The notes under the pieces: model-generated
Database searches by the model: none
What the model was told of the DNA's origin: nothing
What the model saw: the letters and a program-made list of their open reading frames with translations, nothing else
Shown: positions 2,806 through 59,892 of the stretch, one piece after another
How the letters are laid out: every line of letters begins with the position of its first letter
How positions within the stretch are numbered: the first letter of the stretch is position 1
Assembly: GCA_041649135.1 (NCBI GenBank)
Contig: JBAZNQ010000001.1
Location: forward strand, 227,037-291,036
Direction: 5' to 3'
DNA: 64,000 nt
DNA from: Patescibacteria group bacterium
Lineage (GTDB): Bacteria; Patescibacteriota; Kazan-3B-28
Made by a program: the position numbers and the translations under genes

Positions 2806-3498
2806 CTAGCGACTATTTTTCTTACGCCACTCCTCCACCTTCCCGTGATGCCCCGACAACAAAACTTTCGGTACCTTGTGCCCTTCAAACACCTCTGGTC
2901 GAGTGTATTGCGGATGTTCCAAATTATTTCCTACTGAAAAACTTTCATACTTAGCTGATTCCTCATTGTGTAATACATCCGGTAATAATCTCGCCACCGA
3001 CTCCATTACCGTCAGCGCGCCCAATTCTCCACCCATCAATACGAAATCACCTACTGATAATTTTTCATCAACATAATATTTAATCCTTTCATCTACTCCC
3101 TCGTATCTCCCACACACAAACACCAACTCGTCATAGCTAGATAATCTCTTCACTTCTTTTTGAGTAAACCTCTTTCCTCTTGGATCTAATAAAATAATCC
3201 GCACCTTTTTACCGTCATTCCGAACTTGTTTCGGAATCTCCCCCCTTTTTAACTTTTCACTTTTAACTTTTAACCGTAATGACCGCAACGCCGCGACAAG
3301 CGGCGGCAAGGTCATTACTAGTCCCGCCCCTCCGCCATACGGCATATCATCCACCGTTTGATGCCTATCTTTCGTAAACTTCCTTGGACTAATAGTTTTA
3401 AGCTGAACTTGTTTCTTCTTTAAAGCTCGGGACAAAATCCCTTCCTTAAAATAATCCTCGATCAACTGCGGAAAAATTGTGATAACTGTAAAACGCAT
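2806..3498 (-). CDS. trmD: tRNA (guanine37-N1)-methyltransferase
   Basis: TrmD SPOUT motifs (MRFTVITIFPQL…DMPYGGGAG…). Sits in the rpsP operon context. Confidence 0.9.
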   Translation of the reverse strand: MRFTVITIFPQLIEDYFKEGILSRALKKKQVQLKTISPRKFTKDRHQTVDDMPYGGGAGLVMTLPPLVAALRSLRLKVKSEKLKRGEIPKQVRNDGKKVRIILLDPRGKRFTQKEVKRLSSYDELVFVCGRYEGVDERIKYYVDEKLSVGDFVLMGGELGALTVMESVARLLPDVLHNEESAKYESFSVGNNLEHPQYTRPEVFEGHKVPKVLLSGHHGKVEEWRKKNSR

Positions 3499-8823: not shown

Positions 8824-8895
8824 AAATGACTAAATTACAAATAACAAGCTCAAATATCAAACAAATCCCAAATTCCAATGTTCTAAATGTTTTTT

Positions 8896-9057
8896 GTCAT
8901 CCTCGAACCGATAGCGATAGCGCATCGATATCGAGGACCCAGACAGAAACAAAAACATTTTTCTTTTTTCTTTCTAGATTCCCGTTTTCCTCCCAAGGCG
9001 GACAGGTCACGGGAATGACGACGGGGAGACTAGATCCTGAACTAAATTCAGGATGAC
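8896..9057. repeat. Composite bipartite palindromic element (GTC-ATCCTCGA hairpin, CCAGACAGAAAC spacer, ATTCCCG hairpin, GAC, then an ATCCTGAA hairpin)
   Basis: Member of the element family catalogued in the findings. GTCAT/ATGAC termini and internal perfect stems. Confidence 0.7.
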
Positions 9058-9169: not shown

Positions 9170-9191
9170 AGCTTTTTATTTTTGTCTTTGC

Positions 9192-9341
9192 CCCTAGATA
9201 CTAGATACTGAATACTAGATACTAAATTGTGTTTCGGATTTCGGATTTAGGATTTGTTTGGTATTTCGTGCTTCGAATTTGTTTCGGATTTCGGATTTCG
9301 AATTTATCTCCCTAGATACTAGATACTGAATACTAGATACT
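9192..9341. repeat. Two 32-bp direct repeats (CCCTAGATACTAGATACTGAATACTAGATACT) flanking an 86-bp (TTTCGGAT)n-like low-complexity spacer
   Basis: Exact 32-bp copies at about 9192-9223 and 9310-9341. Not CRISPR (see rejected). Confidence 0.6.
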
Positions 9342-9346
9342 AGATA

Positions 9347-11125
9347 TTATGCCAACTTTGCCTTTTTGTAATCAACTTTCACAAATTCCGCTACATCATC
9401 CGGCATCACTTTGGCAGTCGTGGTAACCAAAAATCCAAAATCATTTCCCTGTGTCGCTTCACTTACTTCTTCTGTTAAATGTTTAATCAATTTTACCGTA
9501 CCCGAGCCAATTTCTTCATCGCCACGCATAAATTTCACTACATTGCCAAGCCCAATTCTGCCCGACAATACTTTCATCCCAATAATCTTTTCATGCCGAT
9601 CCTCGCGGAAAATCTTTAAGACAGTCGCCTTACCCGATTGGGTCTCAATTCGTTCTGGTTCAATTGATTCCAATAAAATCTTGGTCAAATCATCCGTCAA
9701 ATTATAAATAATATCGTAGCCCAAGATCTGAATTTTATCTTTCTTCGCCATACTAGTGGCTGACGGACTAACATCCACTTTAAATCCCACCACGATCGCT
9801 TTCTCACCTTCCGCCGCCAGAATATCGGACTCGCTAATATTACCGATCCCCTCGCTAATAATCTTTATTTCTCCCTTGTCAGTCCGGATTTTTGATAATT
9901 GATTTTTAATTGCCTCTAACGAACCTTGCATATCCGCTTTTAACACCACTGCGATTTGTGATGCATGCGCCGCTCGGATCTGGGCTGTCAGTCTGGACAA
10001 ATCCGAAGCACTGACGGAAATCTTGCGAGCCGTTGCTTGTTTTGATTTTTGCATCGCCAATTCCCGCGCTTGTTTTTCGCTTTCCACTACTTCAAAAAAT
10101 TCTCCCACATTCGGCACAGCACTAAACCCCGTGACCCTGACAGGCATCGCCGGCTCGGCTTCTTTTACTCGCCGTCCCAAATAATCTTCCATTGATTTTA
10201 CTTTGCCGGCTTGAGCTCCCACCACGAACGGATCACCAATTTTTAGCGTACCGTTTTGTACTAATAAAGTTCCCGTATAACCAACCTTGGGATCATGTTT
10301 AGTTTCGATCACAAAACCAGTCGCCGGCGCTTTTTTATCCGCAGTCAGTTCCTGTAGATCTACTGTCAATAACACCAAGTCCAACAGTTCATCCACACCT
10401 TCACCAGTTTTCGCCGATACTCCAATAATGACATCCTTACCGCCCCATTTCTCCGTTACGATATTATGGGTCGCCAACTCTTGTTCTACCCGCAAAATGT
10501 TCGCTTCTGGTCTGTCAATTTTAGTAATCGCAGTTACGATCGGCACATTCGCCGCTCGTGCCAATTCGATCGCCTCGATCGTTTGCGGTTTTATTCCTTC
10601 ATCTGCCGCCACTACCAAAATCACCACATCCGTTACCTTCGCACCCTGCGCTCTAATCGCCGAAAACGCCTCATGCCCCGGTGTGTCCAAAAAAGTAATC
10701 TTGTGACCTTTGTATTCTGCCTGATAAGCCCCAATATGCTGGGTAATACCACCAGATTCCCTTTCAGTAATCTTGGTCTTCCGAATGTAATCCAACAGCG
10801 AAGTTTTACCGTGATCAACATGCCCCATGACTGTTACGACCGGCGGTCTTTGATCTCCACCTTCCACTCGCTTTACCACTCGTTCTTTTTCGCGTTTTGC
10901 CTCGCTCTCCGCGCTCTGTTCCACGCTGTAACCTAAATCATCCGCCACGATCGCCGCAGTTTCAAAATCGATATTGTCGTTAATCGTCGCCAGTACCCCA
11001 TTGGCTAACAGTTGCTTAATGACTACCGTTACCGGCACACCAAATGATTGGGCCAATTCATTGACCGTCATCAATCCCGGCAAGACTATTTTCTTTTCTT
11101 CATTCATAACATTTTCGAATGTCAT
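9347..11125 (-). CDS. infB: Translation initiation factor IF-2 (short form, no long N-terminal domain)
   Basis: G-domain VTVMGHVDHGKTSLLD, DTPGH and domain II-IV conservation. The ORF runs open up to 11248 through a repeat element. The start is ambiguous between 11125 (ATG contributed by the element terminus) and 11107. Confidence 0.9.
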   Translation of the reverse strand: MTFENVMNEEKKIVLPGLMTVNELAQSFGVPVTVVIKQLLANGVLATINDNIDFETAAIVADDLGYSVEQSAESEAKREKERVVKRVEGGDQRPPVVTVMGHVDHGKTSLLDYIRKTKITERESGGITQHIGAYQAEYKGHKITFLDTPGHEAFSAIRAQGAKVTDVVILVVAADEGIKPQTIEAIELARAANVPIVTAITKIDRPEANILRVEQELATHNIVTEKWGGKDVIIGVSAKTGEGVDELLDLVLLTVDLQELTADKKAPATGFVIETKHDPKVGYTGTLLVQNGTLKIGDPFVVGAQAGKVKSMEDYLGRRVKEAEPAMPVRVTGFSAVPNVGEFFEVVESEKQARELAMQKSKQATARKISVSASDLSRLTAQIRAAHASQIAVVLKADMQGSLEAIKNQLSKIRTDKGEIKIISEGIGNISESDILAAEGEKAIVVGFKVDVSPSATSMAKKDKIQILGYDIIYNLTDDLTKILLESIEPERIETQSGKATVLKIFREDRHEKIIGMKVLSGRIGLGNVVKFMRGDEEIGSGTVKLIKHLTEEVSEATQGNDFGFLVTTTAKVMPDDVAEFVKVDYKKAKLA

Positions 11126-11220
11126 CCTCGAGCCGACAGTATTAGCGAGTCGACATCGGGGATCCAGACAGAAACAAAAACATTTTTCTTTTCTGGATTC
11201 CCGCCTTCGCGGGAATGACG
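11121..11220. repeat. Composite bipartite palindromic element (GTC-ATCCTCGA hairpin, CCAGACAGAAAC…TTTCTGG spacer, ATTCCCGC hairpin, GAC)
   Basis: Near-identical architecture to 8896-9057, 44453-44535 and 52646-52740. Confidence 0.7.
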
Positions 11221-26851: not shown

Positions 26852-26893
26852 AGCCCCTCCGACCTAATCGGAGGTCCAAACCGAAACAAGAAA

Positions 26894-27181
26894 ATGACTA
26901 ATTCATATGTATATATCACAACCACTCAAATTAACGGAACGCTCTATGTCGGAGCAACTGGAAACCTAAAGAATCGTGTCTATCATCATCGGCTAGAAAA
27001 TCTAAACCATTTTACAAATAAACACAGGGTTGACCGATTAGTTTATTACGAGATACACCTCACGCCAGAAAGCGCATTTGCCCGAGAAAAACAACTCAAG
27101 AAATGGAACCGTAGCTGGAAAATAAAACTCATTGAAACAAAAAACCCAAGCTGGAAAGATTTATATCAAGATTTTTGTTAA
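26894..27181 (+). CDS. GIY-YIG nuclease family protein (YhbQ/UPF0213-like, 95 aa)
   Basis: YVYI…NGTLYVGATGNLKNRVYHH GIY-YIG core, then the conserved Glu and the LKKW motif. Confidence 0.8.
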   Translation: MTNSYVYITTTQINGTLYVGATGNLKNRVYHHRLENLNHFTNKHRVDRLVYYEIHLTPESAFAREKQLKKWNRSWKIKLIETKNPSWKDLYQDFC

Positions 27182-27240
27182 TGTTTGGATCCCCGATGTC
27201 GATGCTTCGCATCGGCTCGAGGACGAAAGGACTATCGATG

Positions 27241-28506: not shown

Positions 28507-29037
28507 TTACAGTACCTTTTTGCCTTCTACAATATCAACATATCTGGCGATATCGTAAAGGTTGATTAGAAGTTCAATCTCCCGCTGACATGGGTATTGG
28601 TGTCGCCAGACACTATGCTGAATCTTCTTGAAACCCAACTGAACTAACTGACCGCGAAATACCTCCCTTGCCAACTTTTTTCGTTCTGGGATATCAAACA
28701 TCACAAAGCGATACAACCCATCCCATGGATCTTGTCGGGGAATTTGTATTTCGTCAGCCCGATATTCCAACACTCTCTGTTTGCCAGCTTTGGTTAAATA
28801 AAGTTTGGTCTTGCCGTTTTGTTCACTCGTTGCTATCAACCCGTCATCTTCGAGCTGTTGAAGTTTTCGCTTAATCACCGCCGGCTCTACACTACGACGA
28901 CGATACTGTTTCGCAAACGGCTTTAGTAACGCCGCTAAGCCAGGTGCTACTGCTATCAATACCAACACTCCGCCTGCCAATGCAATGCCGAGTAGAATAT
29001 CTCTCGCCAAGTTTAGCCTTTCCGCTCTCTCCCCCAT
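28507..29037 (-). CDS. N-terminal TM plus winged-helix domain plus PaaX-C/Cas2-VapD-like fold protein
   Basis: wHTH KRKLQQLEDDGLI. Motif WDGLYRFVMFDIPERKKLAREVFRGQLVQLGFKKIQHSVW resembles PaaX C-terminal and Cas2-like proteins. Confidence 0.45.
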   Translation of the reverse strand: MGERAERLNLARDILLGIALAGGVLVLIAVAPGLAALLKPFAKQYRRRSVEPAVIKRKLQQLEDDGLIATSEQNGKTKLYLTKAGKQRVLEYRADEIQIPRQDPWDGLYRFVMFDIPERKKLAREVFRGQLVQLGFKKIQHSVWRHQYPCQREIELLINLYDIARYVDIVEGKKVL

Positions 29038-29056
29038 ATACTCATTCTATCATTAG

Positions 29057-29091
29057 CACGTTGAGTTAAAGCGGCCGCATAACTCAACGTG
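29057..29091. repeat. 35-bp near-perfect palindrome CACGTTGAGTTAAAGCGGCCGCATAACTCAACGTG
   Basis: One indel relative to the 28425-28458 copy. Sits about 20 nt upstream of the PaaX-like gene start. Confidence 0.8.
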
Positions 29092-29117
29092 TATTCAAAA
29101 ACATCAATCCCCAAGAC

Positions 29118-30716
29118 TTAATTTCGACTCATTTTGGGACCGCTTGAGGTATCCTCTACCGCAAAACCTAATCTACTAATTTGTGTGCGAAGCTGGTCTG
29201 CCTTTTTCCAATTCTTAGCCTGACGCGCTTTTTCCCGCTCTGCTACCAGTTTTTTCACCTCCACGGGAATCGTTAATGGCTTATCATCTTTCAGCCCCAG
29301 CCCCAACACTCTATCGAAATCCAGTAGGGTGGTCTGCTTATCAGCCAATGACTTTTTTGATTTCACTAACTCCCAAACTACCGCCATCGCCTTTGACATA
29401 TTCAAATCATCATTCAGAGCCGACCCGAACCGTTTTTTGTATGTTGCGTCCACTTTCCCCTTGCCATTCTCCTGCTGTACAGCAGGACGGGAATCCATTT
29501 TTGTTTTTCCTGTCTGGATCCCCGATCGAGTCGGGGATGACGAGGAAGAGATGCTGAATACAGCTCGAAGTTTATTCAAGGAATTGCTAGCACCTTCCAA
29601 TGCCTGCAACGAGAACACAAGGTTACTACGATAATGGCTACCAATCGCCAAGTAACGAAAAGCAATTGGATCAACTTCATTTTTTACTAAATCAGCCAGA
29701 TTAATAACATTGCCTTTACTTTTTGACATCTTAATCATACCCATTTCTTCACCGCAAACTCCGCACTTGCCACAATAAACCAAAGTACCATCTGGTAGTC
29801 TCTTTCTAACTAGCTTTCTCTTGCTGATAGATGTTTCATGCCCCTTGCTACATACCATTTTATTGCTTACCCAGCCAATAAAACTCAATGGATCAATTAC
29901 CATAAAGGCATTATGGAACCAATATTTTGCCAACGGCTTATTGTATGCCGCTTCGCTTTGCGCAATTTCATTATTGTGATGTGTCGCAATATGATCCTCT
30001 CCGCCAGTATGAATATCAAATGGTTGACCTAATTCTTTAGTAGAAATTGCCGAACATTCAATATGCCAGCCCGGATACCCCACCCCCCAAGGAGATTTCC
30101 ACTCCTGTTGCCGTTTTTCTGTTCCAGAAAACTTCCACAGCGCAAAATCGGTCTGCCTCTTCTTTTCCTTGCTGTGCGCCACCCTCGCTCTGCTCGAAGA
30201 CCCCCCAAAGCCTTGGCGAAGGGGGGCCAGCTTGCCGTATCCCTTAAATTTTGCGGTATCAAAATAAATCCCATCAGTAGTTTTGTATGTGTATCCCTTT
30301 TTCTCTAATTTTTTAATTAAAGCTATTTGTTCCTTGATGTACTTACTCGCCCATGCAAATTTCACCGGCATTTCAATATTCAACGCTTTCAAATCTTTCA
30401 TAAACTGCTCGGCATAAAACTTGGTAATTTCCTTCGCGGTTTTGTGCTCTTTCTTTGCTTCTCGTTCTACCTTGTCTTCGCCCGTATCCGCATCAGACGT
30501 TAAATGCCCAACATCCGTAATATTCATTACCTGTTTCACTTTGTAGCCGTTGTATTCCAAAGTTCGGCGCAAAATATCTTCCGCCAAATATGCTCGTAGA
30601 TTACCGATATGCGCATACTGATACACTGTTGGTCCGCAGGTGTACATCGAAACCTGGCCTTTCTTCAAAGGCCTAAATTCCTGCTTCTTCCGACCTAGTG
30701 TATTGAATAGCTTCAT
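29118..30716 (-). CDS. cysS: Cysteine--tRNA ligase (532 aa) carrying an in-frame palindromic-element insertion in the linker before the anticodon-binding domain
   Basis: HIGN, KMSKS (KMSKSKGN) and a zinc-binding Cys. A ~25-aa extra segment is encoded at 29455-29541 by a GTCATCCCCGA…palindromic element. Confidence 0.9.
   Translation of the reverse strand: MKLFNTLGRKKQEFRPLKKGQVSMYTCGPTVYQYAHIGNLRAYLAEDILRRTLEYNGYKVKQVMNITDVGHLTSDADTGEDKVEREAKKEHKTAKEITKFYAEQFMKDLKALNIEMPVKFAWASKYIKEQIALIKKLEKKGYTYKTTDGIYFDTAKFKGYGKLAPLRQGFGGSSSRARVAHSKEKKRQTDFALWKFSGTEKRQQEWKSPWGVGYPGWHIECSAISTKELGQPFDIHTGGEDHIATHHNNEIAQSEAAYNKPLAKYWFHNAFMVIDPLSFIGWVSNKMVCSKGHETSISKRKLVRKRLPDGTLVYCGKCGVCGEEMGMIKMSKSKGNVINLADLVKNEVDPIAFRYLAIGSHYRSNLVFSLQALEGASNSLNKLRAVFSISSSSSPTRSGIQTGKTKMDSRPAVQQENGKGKVDATYKKRFGSALNDDLNMSKAMAVVWELVKSKKSLADKQTTLLDFDRVLGLGLKDDKPLTIPVEVKKLVAEREKARQAKNWKKADQLRTQISRLGFAVEDTSSGPKMSRN
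29455..29541 (-). repeat. Bipartite palindromic element inserted in frame within cysS
   Basis: Minus-strand sense: GTCATCCCCGA-ctcgat-CGGGGAT, CCAGACAGGAAAAACAAAAATGG, ATTCCCGTCC… This is the same architecture as the intergenic copies. Confidence 0.65.
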
Positions 30717-30724
30717 ATTTTTTC

Positions 30725-30853
30725 TTTCTGGATTCCCGCCTTCGCGGGAATGACGAGAAGGGAACGACTTAATGTATTAAATAGTTTTAGTATTTTTCGC
30801 CTGGTCATCCTGAATTAATTTCAGGATCTAGATTCTGAAACAAGTTCAGAATG
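30725..30853. repeat. Two palindromic elements (GATTCCCGCcttcGCGGGAATGAC, and a family-C element with ATCCTGAA and ATTCTGAA hairpins)
   Basis: Family termini and architecture. Confidence 0.6.
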
Positions 30854-30895
30854 ATAAATAATATGTATTAAGCTATTTTCCCCCTCTGGGTGTAT

Positions 30896-31801
30896 TTACA
30901 CCATTTTTAATCCAAAGATTCGTGGAAATATCAATCGCCCATCTACTATCAATGCGCCCAACAGTACCAACAACCCACCATAAATATTATGAGCGGTCAG
31001 ACTCTCGTGTAAAAATATTACTGACAAAATTGCCACCTGAATGATCATCGTACTATCCAGAATAGATGCTTCCAACACCTTCAGCTTGTCCAAAACATTT
31101 CCCCAAATCAATCCACCAAAAGCAAAAATCAGTGCCACCACTACTAAACTAACTACCAGCCGAATATCCCAGTTAATTGCCGGCATCCCATCAGTTAATA
31201 AACCAATCGGCACCAATACCATCGCAGCCACCCCATTGCCAATCAGCATTAACGGCAGAGTCACGTTATCAGTATGAGCTTTAGCAATTATGCGACCAAC
31301 CGAATTATTAAAGGCATATCCCACCTCTGCCAATATCAACAACGCTACCCCCAACAAAGTTCCGCCCAATACCTGATGGCCCAAGAAAATTACCAAGCCC
31401 GTCGCTACTAAAACCACTCCCAAATACTGTTCCAAGCGTGGTTTTTCTTTTACTAAAATACCCGACATCAACAAAGTAAACAGCACACTGGTGGCCGCAA
31501 CCAAACCAGCCGTGGCACCGGTCACGTACTGCAAACCAATCATTACAAATAAAGTCGCACCGCCATAGCCAACCGCCCCCGCTAACACCATCAAATATTT
31601 GTCCCGCACCGAAATTTTAAAAGAATACTTCTCTCGCTCAAACCACATATAAATCAGCAGCACAACCAACACCACCAACTGCAATACTGCCGCAAAGAAA
31701 TATGGCGGGATCTCTTCCAATCCCATCTTCAAAATAATTTTTGAGGCCGACCAGATAAATACTACGAACAGCCCCTGCAGTAGAAATGGTAATTTAGATT
31801 T
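30896..31801 (-). CDS. DMT-superfamily (EamA-like) transporter, about 10 TM helices
   Basis: Two EamA-like 5-TM halves. The start is probably M at 31801 (the track ORF runs open to 31840). Confidence 0.55.
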   Translation of the reverse strand, partial: KSKLPFLLQGLFVVFIWSASKIILKMGLEEIPPYFFAAVLQLVVLVVLLIYMWFEREKYSFKISVRDKYLMVLAGAVGYGGATLFVMIGLQYVTGATAGLVAATSVLFTLLMSGILVKEKPRLEQYLGVVLVATGLVIFLGHQVLGGTLLGVALLILAEVGYAFNNSVGRIIAKAHTDNVTLPLMLIGNGVAAMVLVPIGLLTDGMPAINWDIRLVVSLVVVALIFAFGGLIWGNVLDKLKVLEASILDSTMIIQVAILSVIFLHESLTAHNIYGGLLVLLGALIVDGRLIFPRIFGLKMV

Positions 31802-31835
31802 CATAGACAGAACTACTCCTTCACGATTTCTGTTC

Positions 31836-31925
31836 GTCATTCTGGCTTGCCTGCCCGCCTTGGGAGGGACCAGAATCTTATCGAATATCTATACGATTCT
31901 GGATGCGCTTCGCTTACCAGAATGA
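31836..31925. repeat. Family-B bipartite palindromic element (two ATTCTGG/CCAGAAT hairpins between GTC and GAC)
   Basis: Near-identical to 52529-52630. Confidence 0.7.
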
Positions 31926-31939
31926 CGGCTACCACAGGA

Positions 31940-31994
31940 CTTCACTCTTCACTCTTCACTCTTCACTCTTCACTCTTCACTCTTCACTCTTCAC
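31940..31994. repeat. Heptamer microsatellite (TCACTCT) x7
   Basis: Perfect tandem copies. Partial extra copies lie at 32029-32050. Confidence 0.85.
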
Positions 31995-32032
31995 TTCGTA
32001 GATCATCCCGAAGCCTTGTGCGAAGGGTGACT

Positions 32033-33034: not shown

Positions 33035-33122
33035 AGAAAATAAGTTAAAAGTTAACAGTTAAAAGTGAATAATTATGGTAAAAATCAAATTCCTCAATTG
33101 TTAACTGTTCACTGTTCACTAT

Positions 33123-33881
33123 TCACTGTTCACTAAGAGTTATCTTATTAATCACGATTGGTGTCTTCGGACGGCTAACCTCTCCTTGACCGTTATCTTC
33201 TACTGGCATTGCGGCAATCTTGTCCACCACATCCATTCCCTCCACTACCTTTCCAAAGATGACATAACTTTTTGGCAAATCTGTGGCATCCTGATGCACG
33301 ATAAAGAACTGACTACCGTTGGTATTCGCCCCTGAATTTGCCATTGCTACCGTTCCACGGCTATATTCACCAACTATTTTTTCATCATCAAACTGATATC
33401 CCGGTCCGCCAGTTCCGTCATCACTCGGATCATCGTCTTTAGAATTCGGATCGCCAGTCTGGATCATGAAATCTTTAATTACCCGATGAAACTTAATGCC
33501 GTCATAAAAATTCCTCTTCGCCAGCAACACGAAACTGGCCGCTGTCTTAGGAGTATTATCTGTATCTAACTCGATCTTGATATTACCCTGACTGGTTTCT
33601 AGTGTCGCGAATTTATTCTGGGCCAATTCCTCTTTTGTAATTTCTCCGAACGGACCCTTCACTTTTCCCGCCAAACCGTTCCAATCAACCTGTTGAAACC
33701 CCCAAATTCCGGCCCAAACCAACGCTCCCAATACGGCTAACCCGCCAAAACCCAAACCAATTCGTAACATCCATTTTCGCCATGGCGCCCATTCCAAACT
33801 CGCCCGCGCCCGCAACTCTTGCCGGATATTTTTTTCTTCAGCTAATTTTCGTGCTTTTCTTTCGCGTGATCTTCTAGACAT
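33123..33881 (-). CDS. ppiB: Cyclophilin-type peptidyl-prolyl cis-trans isomerase with an N-terminal membrane anchor
   Basis: Cyclophilin motifs (FHRVIKDFMIQTGD…MANSG…GSQFFI). Confidence 0.85.
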   Translation of the reverse strand: MSRRSRERKARKLAEEKNIRQELRARASLEWAPWRKWMLRIGLGFGGLAVLGALVWAGIWGFQQVDWNGLAGKVKGPFGEITKEELAQNKFATLETSQGNIKIELDTDNTPKTAASFVLLAKRNFYDGIKFHRVIKDFMIQTGDPNSKDDDPSDDGTGGPGYQFDDEKIVGEYSRGTVAMANSGANTNGSQFFIVHQDATDLPKSYVIFGKVVEGMDVVDKIAAMPVEDNGQGEVSRPKTPIVINKITLSEQ

Positions 33882-38731: not shown

Positions 38732-38836
38732 AACTTATTCACCTCCTCTAACCCCTCGGAGACCACCCCGTAGCTTTAGCGAAGGGTGGCCAAAAGCACC
38801 TCCAATCATACCATGTGGATGATTTAGGCTGGATGG

Positions 38837-44297: not shown

Positions 44298-44452
44298 AAA
44301 TGATAAAAAATCTAAATTCTAATCTCTAAATCCCAAACAAATTCCAAATCCTCCAGAAAATCCTAAACTCGAAATTCTAAATCCTAAACAAATTCTAAAT
44401 TCTAAATTCTAATGCTTCAAACGTTTTCTCTGTCATTCCCGCTCTCTTCTTC

Positions 44453-44535
44453 GTCATTCCCGCGTAGGCGGGAATCCAGACAGAAACAGAAAAAAGTTTT
44501 TGTTTGTTTTGCTTTCTGGATCCTCCGGTCAAGCC
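44453..44535. repeat. Composite bipartite palindromic element (GTC-ATTCCCGC hairpin, CCAGACAGAAAC…TTTCTGG spacer, ATCCTCCGG hairpin, GAC)
   Basis: Twin of 52646-52740. A partial extra GTCATTCCCGC lies at 44432. Confidence 0.7.
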
Positions 44536-44618
44536 GGAGGATGACGAGTTTTATTTTAATCATTGGTATTTCGTGCTTCGGATTTGTTTAGTATTTCGAA
44601 TTTATTCACCCATCATCT

Positions 44619-46088
44619 TCAAAGATTATCAACTATTCTTTTAAATTGTTCACCTCTATCATAAGCATCTTTGAACATATCAAAACTGGCACAAGCGGGG
44701 GACAAAATTACTGCTCCACCATTTTTTACTTTCGCATAAGCTACTTTTACAGCCTCATCAAACTTCGCCACAATTTTCACCGGCGTAAACGGAGTATGTT
44801 TTTTAAATACTGCTTTAAATTTCTTCGCCGACTGGCCTATCAATGCCACAAATTTAACATCCGACTTAGCCACAATTTTTGCTAATTGCTTAATATCCCC
44901 ACCCTTATACACTCCACCAACAATCAACGCTTTTGGCATATCAGCAAAAGCCAATACTGCCGCCGCAGCCGCCTCTGGCGTAGTCCCTAAGGAATCATTT
45001 ATAAATACCGTTTTCCCGATCGTTCGCACAATTTCCAGTCGGTGATGTAATGGTTTAAACGCCTTTAACCTCTGCTCAATTCTTTTTATTGGCGCACCCG
45101 CCACGATCGCCGCTGCTATGGCTGGCAACACATTTTGGATGTTATGTTCACCCCGCAACTTGATCGCCGATACTGGTGCCACTACCTGTCGGCGACCAGT
45201 TTTTATATCCCGATAAATTATCTCGTCGTCAGTCAGATACACACCATGTCTCAAAATCTGTTTGGTCGATACCGGACAAATCTTCCCTTTGGTTTGTTGT
45301 AAAGCAATTCTGGTTGGTCCGAAATCCTTTGATGCCACCAAAATATCCGACTTTTTCTGGTATTTATAAATATTCTGCTTGGCAGCTAAATATTTCCCCA
45401 TTGTCTTGTGCCGGTCCAAATGTTCTGGCACCACATTTAACAAAACCGCAATCTGTGGACTCCTGTTCAAATCTTCCAGTTGAAAACTGGATAATTCCAA
45501 CACCACCACATCAATTTTTTTCAATTTTGCCAGCAGGGGAATGGGGGAGTGGCCAATATTACCCGCCAAGTAAATTCTTGCCTTATTATGAGTTCCCGAG
45601 CTCGCCGAGGAACTACCTTTAAGCAGATGGTAAATCAGACTGGTGGTGGTTGATTTCCCCTTCGTTCCTGTCACCCCCACTATCTTTGCCGGACAAAGTT
45701 CAAAAAATAGGCGAGTCGTACTGCTAATTTCCACACCCGTTCTCGTTGCTTTCTTAAATTCTTTTTGTTGCAAAGAAATCCCCGGACTTCTAAACACAAT
45801 TTGAAAATCCGTCAAATTTTGAAGATAATCCCCGCCCAACCGAAAATCCGCACCTAGTTTTTTCGCTTCCAAATACCGCGCTCCTAGTGCCTGCCGGTTA
45901 GCCCCGTCCAACACCGTAACATTGGCTCCTTGTCTAATTAAAAATCTGACGAGCTCCATCCCCTCGCGCCCAAGTCCAATTACCGCTGTTTGCTTCCCTT
46001 GTAACCCCGAGCGAAGCCGCCTGCCCGTCGTAGCCTTGGCGTAGTCGGGAGGGGCAACCTTATTGCCCTGTAAACCATTTTTTACCAT
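44619..46088 (-). CDS. murD: UDP-N-acetylmuramoylalanine--D-glutamate ligase
   Basis: GLGREG Rossmann N-terminus and GVTGTKGKSTT. The start is probably M at 46088 (the track start at 46136 would overlap the RT gene). The N-terminal ~30 aa may be encoded by repeat-like sequence. Confidence 0.9.
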   Translation of the reverse strand: MVKNGLQGNKVAPPDYAKATTGRRLRSGLQGKQTAVIGLGREGMELVRFLIRQGANVTVLDGANRQALGARYLEAKKLGADFRLGGDYLQNLTDFQIVFRSPGISLQQKEFKKATRTGVEISSTTRLFFELCPAKIVGVTGTKGKSTTTSLIYHLLKGSSSASSGTHNKARIYLAGNIGHSPIPLLAKLKKIDVVVLELSSFQLEDLNRSPQIAVLLNVVPEHLDRHKTMGKYLAAKQNIYKYQKKSDILVASKDFGPTRIALQQTKGKICPVSTKQILRHGVYLTDDEIIYRDIKTGRRQVVAPVSAIKLRGEHNIQNVLPAIAAAIVAGAPIKRIEQRLKAFKPLHHRLEIVRTIGKTVFINDSLGTTPEAAAAAVLAFADMPKALIVGGVYKGGDIKQLAKIVAKSDVKFVALIGQSAKKFKAVFKKHTPFTPVKIVAKFDEAVKVAYAKVKNGGAVILSPACASFDMFKDAYDRGEQFKRIVDNL

Positions 46089-46095
46089 AGCCCTA

Positions 46096-47079
46096 TTATA
46101 CCCCGACCCGTCTCCGCAGATGATAAGTATCTCCATGCTTTAACAACCCGGTATACGAAGCCACCACCTCTTGTTTAGGATTTTTTGCCAGCTTCCGAAT
46201 TGTTCTGCGTTTCGTGGTCGTCCGAATTTGTCGGTGATACGGAAAATGCACCCATCCCAAAAAATCTATCCCCGAAGCCATTGTGCTAATCGACACCTTA
46301 TTTGGATGTAATTCTAGTTTTAAAACCACCTTCAAATAATTCTGAATTTCAAACAATATTTGTTCAAGCCACACCTTATTATCTGACAACACTACAAAAT
46401 CGTCTGCATATCGAATGTAGTGTTTGATTTTGAGCTGATGTTTAACAAACTGGTCAAATTCATCCATATAAATGTTCACCAAAAGCTGCGATGTCAGATT
46501 ACCCAACGGCAACCCTTTACCAACTCCCGTGCTAGTAAAACTTTCTACGATGTTCCGCAACAGCCAAATAATATTTTGGTCTGGAATATATTGAACCAAA
46601 ATATCTATCAATATTTTGTGGTCAATCGACGCAAAAAATTTTCTAATGTCGCCCTTCAACACCCAAACCGTCCGAGTATGATTACAACTAACCTGTCTGG
46701 CAAAATGTCTCAATCGATCCAATGCTCGATGTGTTCCCTTGCCCCTACGACAAGAAAAAGAGTCTGCTATAAAAGTAGTGTCAAAAAACGGATATAGCAT
46801 TCTGTATACCGCATGATGCAGCAATCTATCGCATACGCTAGCCTTGTGAATGTTTCTCGGTTTCGGATCAGAGATATTAAATGCTAGGTACTCCCCATGC
46901 CGATAAGTCCTATTGCGCAAATCTTCATGTAAACTCCGAACATTATCCGCCAATCGATACCCAAATAATTGCACATCTGGCTTCTTGGTCTTGCCTCTAA
47001 AAAACTCCCGCCATGCTGCCAGCAAATTTTCTGGCGAGATGATATCATCATAGCTATGGACGAATTGTTTTCGACTCAT
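46096..47079 (-). CDS. DGR reverse transcriptase
   Basis: RT motifs including YADDFVVL (YxDD) and the DGR-diagnostic LGNLTSQ (SQ rather than the group II SP). An AGAAGG RBS precedes M at 47079. The upstream open frame to 47286 is probably noncoding. Confidence 0.85.
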   Translation of the reverse strand: MSRKQFVHSYDDIISPENLLAAWREFFRGKTKKPDVQLFGYRLADNVRSLHEDLRNRTYRHGEYLAFNISDPKPRNIHKASVCDRLLHHAVYRMLYPFFDTTFIADSFSCRRGKGTHRALDRLRHFARQVSCNHTRTVWVLKGDIRKFFASIDHKILIDILVQYIPDQNIIWLLRNIVESFTSTGVGKGLPLGNLTSQLLVNIYMDEFDQFVKHQLKIKHYIRYADDFVVLSDNKVWLEQILFEIQNYLKVVLKLELHPNKVSISTMASGIDFLGWVHFPYHRQIRTTTKRRTIRKLAKNPKQEVVASYTGLLKHGDTYHLRRRVGV

Positions 47080-47120
47080 CCTTCTAAGGTTACCCCCCCC
47101 CCGAACCTCTGCAACCAAAA

Positions 47121-47468
47121 TTGGTCGCTGTGGTTCTGAAATTGAAAGATAGCTACCGAATTTGGCAGGAGTATCTCGTTCACTTTCCCAGACAAAATCG
47201 CTACACCCTCGGCACCAGAATTGACGCTGTTTTTCTTTCTGCCATTGAGTATTGCTTTCTCGCCAGTTATGCGCCGAAGGATGCAAAACTTAGCCTACTT
47301 AGTAGAACCATCTCTCAAGTTGATTTGCTCAAGCTCTTGCTTCAACTGGCCTGGGAAATCCGCGCTCTTGATAACAAAAAATATGCCCATCTCGGCGAAC
47401 ATCTCACCGAAATCGGCAGAATGCTTGGCGGTTGGAAAAAGGGACTGTTATCAAAAACTCCCGTCTAA
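47121..47468 (+). CDS. Four-helix-bundle protein (bAvd-like accessory variability determinant)
   Basis: Matches the four-helix-bundle/23S-IVS family pattern (…YRIWQEY…FPRQNRYTLG…LSRTISQVD…EIGRMLGGW). Lies between RT and TR but on the opposite strand. Confidence 0.55.
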   Translation: MVAVVLKLKDSYRIWQEYLVHFPRQNRYTLGTRIDAVFLSAIEYCFLASYAPKDAKLSLLSRTISQVDLLKLLLQLAWEIRALDNKKYAHLGEHLTEIGRMLGGWKKGLLSKTPV

Positions 47469-47491
47469 GATTTTAGCGGGAGAAACTTGTG

Positions 47492-47607
47492 AGTTGCAAC
47501 AAGCACGCGGTTGTCATCGTTCCACTGATTGTCGTCAAGCTGGTTCGCGTTGAAGTTCCACTGCCGGTTGTCGGAGTTCCAGTTCACGTTAGCTGCAAAG
47601 ACCTCGC
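47492..47607 (-). repeat. DGR template repeat (TR)
   Basis: On the minus strand this copy carries A at all 16 positions where VR differs. Its translation is Asn(AAC)-rich (…AANVNWNSDNRQWNFNANQLDDNQWNDDN…), typical of a TR. Confidence 0.85.
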
Positions 47608-47917
47608 TTATTGTGACCAAAGCCATCCTTATCACTGCCCATTGATTACTCTTTGGGCTGTATTTTACTTGGGACATCATAAGTCCACCAACTCTGACCA
47701 CCAACTACTACTAGTTTTTGTTGAGGCAAATCAAGACACCCTTGCCCGAACCTTGGTCCGCACAAATCTCGTCATTGATTTGCTCAAAACTCTTTATCCC
47801 AGCCGTAACCGAGATAATACAAAAGTTCTGCCGTTGATTATATCAAAAAAGTCCCAAGGGCTCATCAGCATTTCTGCCGAAGAGCCCAAGGGACCAAGAG
47901 CCAAAGGACTGAAAGGA

Positions 47918-48541
47918 CTAACTGACCGAAGAGTCAGTAGTTGCAACAAGCACGCGGTGGCCATCGTACCACTGAAAGTCGTCAAGCCGGAACGCGCGGA
48001 AGCTCCACTGCCGGTAGTCGGAGTGCCAGCTCACGAAAGCTGCAAAGACCTCGCCATTAACACCGTACACATAGACGATGTTAACGTAGCCATTAGCAAG
48101 CAAGACTCCCCGCTTGCCATTGGGCTGCAAAGCTGTCAGTTTGGCGAAGCGAGCAAAGAACTCGCTAGCCGAGAGAACGTGATTCTCCGGCAGTTCGCTG
48201 ACTATCTGCTTGTCGTAGGCTGGCTTCTTTAGGTCGAATCTATGCAACCCTCCCTCTGGCAACGGACCGATTAGTTCAGCTGCCGGAAGAATGAACCGCT
48301 TCATGCCGTCCGACAGCCAGACATCGGAACGATCCAGTTCCTTCGGGTCGAAGACCTCGGTGGCAGGAAGCATGGCTGAAGCGATGGGCTTCAGGAAGTT
48401 GTAGACCTTCTTGACCTGCTCCACTGTGAACCGGATAGTGCCGTTAAGGATACCCTCGACGATTTCCATACCGCCGAGTTTCTTCGCCAAGGCATTGGCT
48501 TGCCCCAGTGTTAGACCCATCGCACAAAATTCCTTGCTCAT
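47918..48541 (-). CDS. DGR target (variable) protein with a C-terminal CLec-like variable region, 207 aa
   Basis: The C-terminal ~38 aa (…NGYVNIVYVYGVNGEVFAAFVSWHSDYRQWSFRAFRLDDFQWYDGHRVLVAT) are encoded by VR. AAGGAGA RBS. No obvious signal peptide. Confidence 0.8.
   Translation of the reverse strand: MSKEFCAMGLTLGQANALAKKLGGMEIVEGILNGTIRFTVEQVKKVYNFLKPIASAMLPATEVFDPKELDRSDVWLSDGMKRFILPAAELIGPLPEGGLHRFDLKKPAYDKQIVSELPENHVLSASEFFARFAKLTALQPNGKRGVLLANGYVNIVYVYGVNGEVFAAFVSWHSDYRQWSFRAFRLDDFQWYDGHRVLVATTDSSVS
47939..48054 (-). repeat. DGR variable repeat (VR), followed on the 3' side by the hairpin ACTGAC-cgaaga-GTCAGT (47921-47938)
   Basis: 116/116 alignable to TR with 16 differences, all at TR adenines. 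The first ~20 nt at the VR 3' end (47939-47958) are invariant, consistent with an IMH. Confidence 0.85.
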
Positions 48542-52493: not shown

Positions 52494-52528
52494 TAAGCCT
52501 TCCTTGTTTAGTACCTGAATCTCGCACC

Positions 52529-52740
52529 GTCATTCTGGCTTGCCTGCCCGCCTTGGGAGGGACCAGAATCTTATTAAAAACATCTATACGATTCTGGATG
52601 CGGTCGCCATGACGACCTTACCAGAATGACGAGACACTCTTCATCGTCATTCCCGCGTAGGCGGGAATCCAGACAGAAACAGAAAAAGATTTATTGTTTA
52701 TTGTTCTTTTCTGGATCCCCGGGTCAAGCCCGAGGATGAC
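52529..52740. repeat. Family-B element (52529-52630) directly followed by a composite ATTCCCGC / ATCCCCGGG-hairpin element (52646-52740)
   Basis: Near-identical to the 31836-31925 and 44453-44535 copies. Confidence 0.7.
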
Positions 52741-53375
52741 GGGTTGGAAGGTCTAGAATGACGCAGGAGAAAAGCTTCATTCTTCACTTCCTCCATCTTA
52801 ACACTTCCTTCCCGCAACACCATCGGCCGACCTCCCCCATCCAACCTAACTAATGTTGACGGCTTGCCCGCCAATTTGCCAACATCGACATAAAAATCCA
52901 CCCCACCGCCAAAATATTTCTGTGCCGCTCTCACCGTTTCGGCCTGTGGCTCCCCTGCCCAATTTGCACTCGGTGCTACCAACGGACCGGTTTGTTTCAG
53001 TAATTTTTCCAGTCCAGCATATTTCGGCCAACGGAAAGCCAATGTCCCACCACCCCGATGTAAGTATGTCCATTTTTTGCCGAAACATTTTAAGACCACG
53101 CTTACCGTCCCCGGCCAATATTGTTGTAAAAATTTTTTCTGATTTTTATTTAATCGAACTCCAAATTTCTCCAAATCTCTCAACCCGCTAATCAAAATGA
53201 TCATCGGCTTTTTCGTTGCCCGTCGTCGCAACTTATAAATCCGCTCCACTATTGCAGAAAGCAACGCCGAACCCATCAGTCCATATAATGTATCACTCGG
53301 CATCACCCCCACTTCTCCCGCCAAAATCTGCTTCACCAATTTGCCCGAACGCAACGTCTTATAATGTGGAATCAT
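52698..53375 (-). CDS. tsaC: L-threonylcarbamoyladenylate synthase (YrdC/Sua5 domain)
   Basis: YrdC motifs (…GEVGVMPSDTLYGL…KPMIILISG…). The start is probably M at 53375 (the track ORF runs open to 53438). Confidence 0.75.
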   Translation of the reverse strand: MIPHYKTLRSGKLVKQILAGEVGVMPSDTLYGLMGSALLSAIVERIYKLRRRATKKPMIILISGLRDLEKFGVRLNKNQKKFLQQYWPGTVSVVLKCFGKKWTYLHRGGGTLAFRWPKYAGLEKLLKQTGPLVAPSANWAGEPQAETVRAAQKYFGGGVDFYVDVGKLAGKPSTLVRLDGGGRPMVLREGSVKMEEVKNEAFLLRHSRPSNPSSSGLTRGSRKEQ

Positions 53376-53496
53376 ATTTTCATTATACTTTGTTAAACAT
53401 TGTCCCATTACTACATCAACAACCATTTCCACCAGCATTTAAGAAGGGCGGGTGCAGTCAAAAACTGCTCCCGCCCAAAATCTCTCTTCTCTCAAC

Positions 53497-57881: not shown

Positions 57882-58065
57882 ATTTTCCCCCTCCCACCCG
57901 TTCGTCTATAAGTCTATCTGTCTATAAGTCCATTCGTCTACCCGTCTATTAGTCTACCCAAAAATCCGCCCCCAGCCTAGTATTTCATTGAATCTCCGCC
58001 AATCCAAACAATCTCCACCCATATCTTTTTGGTTAGATTGGATTAAATTGGATAGATTGGTTAGA

Positions 58066-59793: not shown

Positions 59794-59892
59794 ACCTCAT
59801 TAATCTAACCAATTTATCCAATTTAATCCAATCTCACCAAGAGGCTATTGGTAGAGATTGTTTAGATTGTTCAGATTGGTGAGATTTCCGTT

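Follow-up and report, generated by a model that had tools for sequence, protein, structure and literature searches.

An in-frame hairpin repeat of the Neisseria dRS3 family in the cysteinyl-tRNA synthetase gene of a Patescibacteria bacterium

How does a palindromic repeat come to lie within the reading frame of an essential translation gene, and does it evolve there together with the gene or on its own? The question is raised by cysS in a stretch of 64,000 nt, here called the window, from a Patescibacteria group bacterium of the Kazan-3B-28 lineage (GCA_041649135.1, contig JBAZNQ010000001.1, positions 227,037 to 291,036). The coding sequence (29118..30716, minus strand; open reading frame list and Pfam) encodes 532 aa. 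Pfam identifies tRNA-synt_1e (E=7.8e-87), DALR_2 and CysS_C, i.e., a class I cysteinyl-tRNA synthetase (CysRS). The protein is identical to P0001, from a metagenome-assembled genome (MAG) labelled 'Patescibacteria group bacterium' at NCBI, while the closest other CysS proteins, from Kazan-type members of the candidate phyla radiation (CPR), are 62-71% identical and mostly 448-460 aa long, against 532 aa here. The gene contains an in-frame extra segment of 31 codons (29463..29555, minus strand; peptide SISSSSSPTRSGIQTGKTKMDSRPAVQQENG), a net gain of 26 aa. We suggest that this segment is a selfish hairpin insertion resembling the Rickettsia palindromic elements (RPEs), a doublet of two inverted units of the Neisseria transformation sequence (NTS) / Ssn-related motif (SRM) family that is translated with the gene; we regard this explanation as quite likely.

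On the coding strand, the segment reads AGC ATC TCT TCC TCG TCA TCC CCG ACT CGA TCG GGG ATC CAG ACA GGA AAA ACA AAA ATG GAT TCC CGT CCT GCT GTA CAG CAG GAG AAT GGC, and its parts are, in this order, a pyrimidine leader, hairpin 1, an A-rich stretch and hairpin 2. A preliminary description of this DNA, made from the letters and the list of reading frames, had placed the element at 29455-29541. The location is right, but the start lies about 14 nt further 5', as the leader AGCATCTCTTCCT reaches 29555. Hairpin 1 (29514..29542, minus strand; CGTCATCCCCGACTCGATCGGGGATCCAG) is the forward unit, with an 8-bp stem and a 5-nt loop. Its arms ATCCCCGA and TCGGGGAT enclose the loop CTCGA, and it has CGTCAT at its left flank and CCAG at its right, giving CGTCAT-CCCCGA-CTCGA-TCGGGG-ATCCAG as a whole. 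The A-rich spacer ACAGGAAAAACAAAAA (29498..29513, minus strand) encodes the residues T-G-K-T-K. Hairpin 2 (29463..29497, minus strand), TGGATTCCCG-TCCTGCTGTACAGCAGGA-GAATGGC, is an inverted and degenerate unit with the structure ATTC-CCG-CCTGCTGTACAGCAGG-A-GAAT. A perfect 16-nt palindrome (29471-29486) lies inside its loop and occurs only once in the window. The reading frame is unbroken through the whole insert, with zero stop codons, as the preliminary description had stated together with the length of the protein. As single-stranded DNA, a 101-nt cysS segment folds at -20.7 kcal/mol (z = -3.9), and no shuffle equals this value. A promoter and terminator scan of 28900-31000 found none inside the insert, and an Rfam scan of the whole window at the gathering threshold gave one tRNA and no family for the hairpins. 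A protein search with the insert peptide turned up no candidate with 5-residue words in common, which says nothing about other proteins that may carry the peptide.

Hairpins of this type are known from Neisseria. The dRS3 repeat of 20 bp, ATTCCC-N8-GGGAAT (PMC1797815), was extended in 2025 to the 28-nt NTS, CGTCATTCCCGCGMAVGCGGGAATCYRG (PMC11893778). The same study describes SsnA, a 94-aa single-domain GIY-YIG protein that binds and cuts the NTS only as single-stranded DNA, and an arrangement NTS-ssnA-NTS that is similar to an insertion sequence. It also defines the degenerate SRM, counts over 300 such motifs in Rickettsia, Wolbachia, Neisseria and Sphingomonas, and finds that 71% of the ssnA homologues are adjoined by an SRM (PMC11893778). 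The published motif, HGTCWYN(0-2)YYVSBRHN(0-5)WNVSBRGN(0-2)RNCYNB (PMC11893778), is matched 8 times in the window, where shuffles give 0.16 +/- 0.39; one of these matches is the cysS hairpin 1. With a relaxed definition (GTCAT, a stem of at least 7 bp and C), 22 sites are found, compared with 0.08 +/- 0.27 in 100 dinucleotide shuffles. Twenty of these are intergenic or at gene ends, and the remaining two are in cysS and trmD.

Hairpin 1 can be aligned with 12 further copies from the window. Among these 13 short-loop copies, T7 C8 A9 T10 and A28 T29 C30 are invariant (flanks GTCAT/TCAT ... ATC), and a compensatory change is found in 4 of the 7 stem pairs; the copies were selected for pairing, so that their 100% pairing is given by construction and only the conservation of the flanks and the diversity of the stems count. 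A canonical NTS copy, CGTCATTCCCGCGAAGGCGGGAATCCAG (30728..30755, minus strand), lies 12 nt upstream of the cysS start, and this copy and the one at 11193 fit the NTS consensus exactly. Judged by sequence, the cysS repeat belongs to the NTS/SRM family, which is the dRS3 family of Neisseria. The preliminary description had assigned the whole element to a family that is also found between genes. This holds for hairpin 1 through its SRM match, while hairpin 2 is not itself a clean copy of the family in the window; at its place, the orthologous loci L004 and L010 have a canonical inverted NTS, ATGGATTCCCGCCTTCGCGGGAATGAC, read as MDSRLRGND.

Doublets also exist outside cysS. The intergenic one at 11120..11220 has the architecture of the cysS insert, a forward unit, an A-rich/T-rich spacer and an inverted NTS. 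Inverted units with such a spacer are found at 8895-9018, two SRM matches in inverted orientation, likewise intergenic, at 44452..44546, and a further doublet at 52645..52741. Some copies are nearly identical: 31835-31881 equals 52528-52574 (47/47 nt), and the copies at 44444 and 52637 are 95% identical over 56 nt, which indicates recent copying.

The family extends far beyond this genome. The exact 23-base pattern GTCATTCCCGC-N4-GCGGGAATCYAG was found at no fewer than 120 loci (at least 120) when one genome per species was searched (596 Gb), where we estimate that about 0.03 matches would be expected by chance. The matches listed come from Proteobacteria, Chloroflexota, Planctomycetota, Nitrospirota, Bacteroidota and several CPR groups, and they include Neisseria, Rickettsia, Tisiphia and a Nanoarchaeota MAG.

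Comparison with relatives shows that the insertion is polymorphic. Orthologous cysS loci were gathered by an exact-protein look-up and a metagenome scan, and they were judged orthologous because they share the gene order RecR - EamA-type transporter - cysS. Seven distinct syntenic loci (L006, L007, L008/L012, L014, L016, L017 and L018) are empty and read F-(N/D/S)-E-K-T-K-G-G-K-V after the helix ...NSLNKLRAVF. The linker has the same length in distant CysS proteins as in these empty alleles. Six distinct alleles are filled, all of them precisely at this one codon, with gains of 26 aa in the window, 26 in L001, 33 in L003, 23 in L004, 43 in L005 and 23 in L010. All six are in frame and free of stops, they have the invariant core AAAACAAAAATGGATTCCCG in common, and the insert is present at this codon in independent assemblies from NCBI, JGI and ENA samples. 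An in-frame palindromic insertion, as proposed in the preliminary description, is therefore borne out: the 31 codons are absent from the seven orthologous loci, and the alignment of orthologues that it called for shows the segment to be absent from most close CysS proteins and present in variant forms in the six filled alleles.

In a neighbour-joining tree of CysS, built from 410 ungapped columns, the filled alleles are interspersed with empty ones. P0002 and P0004 are sisters to the empty P0019 (96% bootstrap), and P0003 with P0021 as well as P0008 with P0017 are further pairs of a filled and an empty allele, so that at least three events are required. The density of hairpins near filled and empty cysS showed no clear relation within these short loci. 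In the L010-type genomes, the insert is present with no other hairpins within about 6 kb, and its hairpin 1 contains a mismatch.

The history of the insert is uncoupled from that of the gene. Outside the insert, the window and L001 are 74% identical in DNA, and identity at third positions is 0.47 if conserved four-fold-degenerate residues are counted and 0.55 if every codon is. In the insert, 87 of 93 nt are identical. All 31 third positions agree, and each of the 6 differences changes an amino acid. No other stretch of 20 codons in the gene is as conserved as the insert, which has a sharp boundary to the saturated flanks. The same pattern is seen against L004 (0.90 against 0.52) and against L010, where the insert has 92% nucleotide identity and the rest of the gene 73%. 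L001 and L005 show the reverse, as their proteins are 94% identical but their inserts only 53%, the insert being the least conserved window. A domain conserved as protein and lacking palindromic DNA, which the preliminary description had named as the alternative to an inserted element, is thus not what is found: the silent sites are the same and six amino acids are not.

The differences between alleles also follow the hairpins. Between the window and L001, hairpin 2 carries a compensatory double change, C..G to T..A, that preserves the palindrome. In L005, the hairpin is longer by 2 nt and the spacer shorter by 2 nt, which restores the frame. In L003, hairpin 2 has a 34-nt loop, and the same 54 nt are found in the spacer between EamA and cysS of L003, about 1 kb upstream. 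It is the DNA of the insert, rather than its peptide, that is kept or replaced. There is exchange of copies with the remaining hairpin population of the genome, selection on cysS acts on the insert as a frame filter only, and the insert evolves separately from the gene instead of being a frozen marker of the lineage.

In the protein, the insert lies where the preliminary description had located it, in the linker after the catalytic part with the KMSKS motif. Alignment to the solved CysRS structures 3sp1, 8qhp and 1li5 places it in a gappy, length-variable linker that lies between the last helix past KMSKS and the helix with which the DALR-type bundle begins. An AlphaFold model built with 110 sequences has a mean predicted local distance difference test score (pLDDT) of 86.1 and a predicted template modelling score (pTM) of 0.82. 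The pLDDT falls below 50 only at residues 73-75, 168-178, 280-284 and 400-417, and the insert is modelled as a low-confidence coil between the helices 370-385 and 424-435. According to the model, it would be located at the surface and be compatible with the fold. The linker has 17-27 residues in all but eight of the 110 CysS sequences. One of the eight, P0071, is a 49% identical CysS with different neighbours that holds an independent doublet of the same family in the same linker; its DNA reads GTCATTC...GAATCC, followed by the reverse complement of GTCATTCTCGGGCTTGACCCGGGGATCCAAG. Because of this second doublet, the loop can be described as a recurrent landing place, most simply through being permissive.

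cysS is not the only gene with such an insert. In trmD (2806..3498), an in-frame hairpin insertion at 3211..3267 (minus strand) adds 19 aa, VKSEKLKRGEIPKQVRNDG. The second half, EIPKQVRND, is an inverted GTCAT-type hairpin of the family, AGATTCCGAAACAAGTTCGGAATGACGG, and the A-rich first half resembles AGTGAAA/AGTTAAA heptamer repeats. The Pfam domain tRNA_m1G_MT spans residues 23-229 of this TrmD, and opposite the insert, the solved TrmD 8b1n has a gap of 19 residues. At 52698..53438, a gene of the Sua5/YciO/YrdC family receives its last 14 codons (PSSSGLTRGSRKEQ) and its stop from an SRM hairpin with its tail (52698-52741, minus strand), which is the second unit of the doublet at 52645..52741. 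The Pfam domain of this protein ends at residue 211 of 246. The pattern matches listed contain 160 NTS hits, of which 12 fall within long open frames. For four of these, Pfam confirmed genes with an in-frame NTS pair, namely IleRS of a Rickettsia endosymbiont, TruB, TGT of a Parcubacteria MAG and a DNA methylase of a Nanoarchaeota MAG; UvrA and a second IleRS can be made out by eye. The pairs in these other genes have the same layout, forward unit, spacer and inverted unit. The methylase (N6/N4 type; …DSCFRRNDAIQDANNSVIPAQAGIQKNN…) has its canonical NTS in frame at positions 1508-1534 of locus L133 (JAHIPG010000372.1). If this bin is correctly assigned, the hairpin family extends to DPANN archaea.

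A possible agent of the spread is encoded 2.3 kb from cysS. A tblastn search with a small GIY-YIG reading frame of L003 located a single-domain frame of 95 aa at 26894..27181 (plus strand), in which Pfam GIY-YIG (PF01541) covers residues 4-77 (E=2.7e-14). A hairpin, CCTCCGA-CCTAA-TCGGAGG, with an A-rich tail lies directly upstream of its ATG (26856..26893, plus strand), and an inverted long hairpin, GTCCTCGAGCCGATGC...GCATCGACATCGGGGATCCAAAC, lies directly downstream (27172..27229, minus strand). The latter shares its subfamily with 11120-11165 and with the copies found upstream of cysS in L003 and L006. The frame is 53% identical to the hairpin-flanked frame in L003, 48% to a Methylotenera frame between two canonical NTS copies (L109) and 54% to a gammaproteobacterial frame whose ATG follows an NTS by 10 nt (L189). 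Y7, Y18 and E65 have the spacing of the SsnA residues Y6, Y17 and E64 that were mutated in PMC11893778. From its size, its domain, the hairpin flanks and this spacing, the gene is a candidate Ssn-type nuclease, and by analogy with SsnA, its product is a candidate cutter of the hairpins in the window. A search gave 342 homologues, nearly all of 94-100 aa, from CPR and Alphaproteobacteria. Between these two groups, the homologues P0122-P0240 show 50-63% identity, and most are found on contigs 0.5-3 kb long, which is what one expects of a gene surrounded by repeats at which assemblies break.

We suggest that the repeat population is selfish, i.e., that within a genome one copy gives rise to another or overwrites it. 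In other bacteria, an Ssn-type GIY-YIG nuclease is reported to recognise and nick hairpins as single-stranded DNA, and a likely route here would be that extruded hairpins are nicked, after which repair or template copying takes place. Of the copies that land in genes, most would be lost. The copy in cysS would survive since its length is a multiple of three, it is stop-free and it lies in a variable surface linker, which joins the catalytic/stem-contact part to the helical anticodon-binding part. There it would be translated into a disordered loop rich in Ser, Thr, Gly and Lys that the enzyme tolerates, presumably at no cost or benefit. A wider reading, which we put forward only tentatively, is that SRM/NTS doublets are the general mobile unit of RPE-type palindromes across Bacteria (CPR, Rickettsiales, other Proteobacteria), perhaps also in DPANN, and that Ssn-type nucleases spread and homogenise them. 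Hairpins would then be nicked in single-stranded DNA and copied from one another, and permissive loops, the CysRS linker among them, would receive insertions many times over, each on its own.

The data can be read in other ways. A single doublet could have been inserted in an ancient cysS, inherited vertically and lost exactly in some lineages, with the similarity of copies kept up by selection on the DNA hairpin or by gene conversion. The shared codon and core of all six filled alleles would fit this, the L010-type genomes look like holders of a fossil copy, and several of the deeper nodes in the tree that makes the filled alleles polyphyletic are weak. However, the empty alleles have the length of distant CysS proteins, so that exact losses would be needed several times, and the sister pairs of filled and empty alleles demand at least three events. 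Moreover, 31 identical third positions between saturated flanks would require a very strong constraint on the DNA or recent copying, and L001 and L005 hold different units in spite of their 94% identical proteins. One old insertion followed by conversion and losses is therefore improbable to us, yet it deserves to be kept in mind for cysS. We are a little more doubtful about a second possibility, that the hairpins are repetitive extragenic palindromic sequences (REPs), or doublets of these that form hairpins (REPINs), moved by a REP-associated tyrosine transposase (RAYT), an IS200/IS605-like Y1 enzyme, with the GIY-YIG gene merely a frequent neighbour. Inverted doublets are indeed the architecture of REPINs, and a RAYT has been proposed as mobiliser of the same Neisseria repeat: Bertels and Rainey treat ATTCCCGCGCAGGCGGGAATC as a Neisseria REPIN of a Group 2 RAYT, the loss of which accompanies REPIN decay (bioRxiv 10.1101/2021.07.10.451892). 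But a crude scan of any frame of the 64-kb window, out of at least 521 kb, gave no Y1-transposase-like motif (Y-x-x-x-N-P), and no transposase domain was found in the about 20 window frames scanned with Pfam. What recurs is a GIY-YIG gene flanked by hairpins, in the window, L003, L109 and L189, in addition to the published 71% association.

The remaining alternatives have much less in their favour. The segment would be an ordinary expansion of a CysRS loop, or an insertion domain, specific to the lineage and palindromic by chance, only if hairpin 1 matched by accident a published 29-nt motif that is 50-fold enriched in the window, and if the peptide changed while the silent sites did not. The linker does vary in length, 17-27 residues in most of the 110 sequences, and the same CysS has a real folded insertion of 54 aa, zinc-ribbon-like (see below); but the insert is a low-confidence coil, its DNA is also found between genes, and we hold this explanation to be very unlikely. 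Hairpin 'byp' elements in mitochondrial genes of the yeast Magnusiomyces and the gap in gene 60 of phage T4 are bypassed and stay untranslated. The cysS insert could in the same way be skipped by the ribosome or removed from the mRNA, and with an RNA fold of -35 kcal/mol (z = -2.2), it is a strong hairpin in a coding region. However, bypassed elements need neither a kept frame nor freedom from stops, while the six alleles keep the frame through four lengths, L005 by an offset of +2 and -2 nt, and contain no stops, and the same is true of the trmD insert and the pairs in IleRS, TruB, TGT and the methylase. Bypass or RNA excision was rejected on the ground that the frame is kept in every allele, and we give it hardly any weight. 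Finally, the repeat could have been misspliced into cysS during metagenome assembly, as the window is part of a MAG, assemblies do break at repeats, and very short contigs hold many of the GIY-YIG homologues. This has a negligible chance, given that the insert is at the same codon in independent NCBI, JGI and ENA assemblies, always in frame and with cysS on both sides.

Besides the weak nodes and the two stronger rivals above, further points weigh against a selfish doublet insertion or against parts of it. In the window, hairpin 2 lacks a match to the SRM motif, its right arm being short by three bases. The hairpins on either side of the GIY-YIG gene are variants without a match to the strict SRM motif, and the gene is a candidate for the Ssn type by the features listed above. 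How SRM hairpins multiply is unexplained even in Neisseria (PMC11893778). That the loop is translated and the enzyme fully active is something we infer. At the junctions of filled and empty cysS, no convincing target-site duplication or defined ends are found, and the only candidate for a duplication is a doubtful AAAAAT repeat at an intergenic site of L003/L006. Further, the A-rich centre could be kept host codons E-K-T-K, in which case two single units were inserted and not one doublet. At the position of the A-rich spacer, the empty alleles have AAT GAA AAA ACA AAG, and 42 nt (leader and hairpin 1) plus 27 nt (inverted NTS) give exactly the 23 additional residues of L004 and L010 with zero host codons lost; together, these observations suggest two single-unit insertions around a retained E-K-T-K. 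On the other hand, the intergenic copies have CCAGACAGAAACAAAAAC tails, and in the fold of the single-stranded DNA, the tail pairs with the pyrimidine leader, which suggests that the A-rich centre belongs to the element. Both readings fit the data.

The selfish insertion that we favour can be compared with several known systems. RPEs are small palindromic repeats found in frame in unrelated housekeeping genes (Ogata et al. 2000, via PMC10969869). The elements described here resemble them in the in-frame, stop-free inserts of cysS and trmD that add peptide, in the intergenic copies and in the tail of the Sua5/YrdC-family gene. They differ in size (81-93 nt for the cysS insert against about 100-150 bp), in their host, Patescibacteria/CPR, and in the unit, where 28-nt SRM hairpins whose stems vary form a doublet. 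The analogy with RPEs drawn in the preliminary description proves apt, and the relationship may be more than an analogy: the same motif, GTCATTCCCGC-N4-GCGGGAATCCAG, forms the in-frame pair in IleRS of the Rickettsia endosymbiont (L208). The NTS hairpin itself occurs in the Rickettsia/Tisiphia loci L208 and L166. Our literature search found no paper tying RPEs to a GIY-YIG nuclease.

With NTS, dRS3 and SRM the window shares the form CGTCAT-ATTCCCGCG..GCGGGAAT-CCAG, the oriented flanks, the enrichment and a GIY-YIG gene of 94-95 aa bracketed by hairpins. In contrast, the Neisseria NTS is described as forming intergenic clusters that modulate natural transformation, and insertion into reading frames, Patescibacteria and RPEs have zero mentions in that paper (PMC11893778). 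As in REPIN/RAYT systems, there are inverted doublets, populations within a genome and near-identical copies (bioRxiv 10.1101/2021.07.10.451892). As to differences, no RAYT was seen in the 64-kb window, and its hairpins have the conserved flank GTCAT and C. Classical REPs carry a GTAG tetranucleotide. MITEs (miniature transposable elements with inverted repeats) such as QMITE1 of Coxiella, intragenic enterobacterial repetitive intergenic consensus (ERIC) sequences and elements of Anabaena are likewise non-autonomous repeats that can be read as protein (PMC10969869). However, terminal inverted repeats with a target-site duplication cannot be defined in cysS, and what is conserved is a hairpin whose stem varies between fixed flanks.

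Rickettsia has been known since 2000 to carry palindromic repeats in frame, and descriptions of the hairpin family and its nuclease appeared in 2025, so the kind of element is not new. What appears new against the searchable literature is the CPR host, the placing of an RPE-like insertion in a protein within the SRM/NTS family, with a gene of Ssn type nearby, the quantified uncoupling of insert and gene history, and the repeated insertion in one CysRS loop. A genome of about 0.5 Mb still supports a thriving population of selfish hairpins, and such hairpins also enter essential genes of translation, in this window cysS and trmD, in other genomes IleRS, TruB and TGT. The finding joins three literatures that name the same DNA differently, those on dRS3, Neisseria intergenic mosaic elements (NIME) and NTS in Neisseria, on REPINs, and on the RPEs of Rickettsia. 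The Ssn-type GIY-YIG nuclease is a testable candidate for how RPE-like elements move, which has been an open question since 2000. In protein databases, peptides such as MDSRLRGND, HSREGGNP, VIPAKAGIQ or SSPTRSGIQ are read-through hairpins. Since the histories of insert and gene differ, hairpin segments break the assumption of shared history for insertions and can mislead alignments, trees and indel markers.

The same CysS has another insertion, of about 54 aa before KMSKS (residues 275-328; 29733-29894, minus strand). It resembles a zinc ribbon and forms beta strands in the model. It is found only in P0001, P0005, P0007, P0021 and P0030; the relatives have the pattern CxxC...CxxC, of which the first pair is lost in the window. 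It co-occurs with KMSKS, while the relatives free of this insertion have KMAKS, a pattern suggestive of a cassette swap.

A second in-frame hairpin in cysS belongs to a different family. It encodes residues 164-175 (APLRQGFGGSSS; 30192-30227, minus strand) with the peptide LRQGFGG, and the low-confidence segment 168-178 of the model is the loop encoded by it. This family has a variable stem, the loop TTCGCCAAGGCTT and a variable stem, with related copies at 38765, 46025 and 49044. The hairpin is nearly the same base for base in L007, where it is the most conserved window between the two genes (70% identical), and L005 has compensatory stems at this site. A hairpin of the same family, CCGACTACGCCAAGGCTACGACGG, lies at the 5' end of murD (44619..46136; 45990-46090, minus strand). 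The preliminary description had suspected a repeat-like segment there, and a hairpin is indeed present, although of this other family (loop CGCCAAGGCT). It is in an N-terminal extension ahead of the MurD-like_N domain, which starts at residue 48, and stands between NGLQGNKVA and SGLQGKQTAV, flanking stretches that look like a duplicated target.

The window further contains a diversity-generating retroelement at 46096-48541, to which the only reverse transcriptase among the scanned frames belongs (46096..47286, minus strand). Its template repeat is at 47492-47607 and its variable repeat at 47939-48054, at the 3' end of the frame 47918..48541 (minus strand), and all 16 of 16 mismatches between the two are at template adenines. 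L003 also has RVT_1 and bAvd.

A hairpin with an A-rich tail of 10-18 nt stands directly before several start codons, those of cysS, of the GIY-YIG gene and of homologues of these elsewhere, at 30717-30755 (cysS), at 26856-26893 (GIY-YIG), at about 9950-10003 in L006 and at about 1885-1927 in L189, and it may supply or replace the leader for translation initiation. Intergenic tandem arrays with units of 7 to 9 nt (CTTCACT, TTGGTTAGA, TAGATAC, AAATTCT and similar) are found at 9190-9345, 31940-31995, 33093-33134, 44306-44421, 58029-58067 and 59848-59886, and several of these adjoin hairpin clusters.

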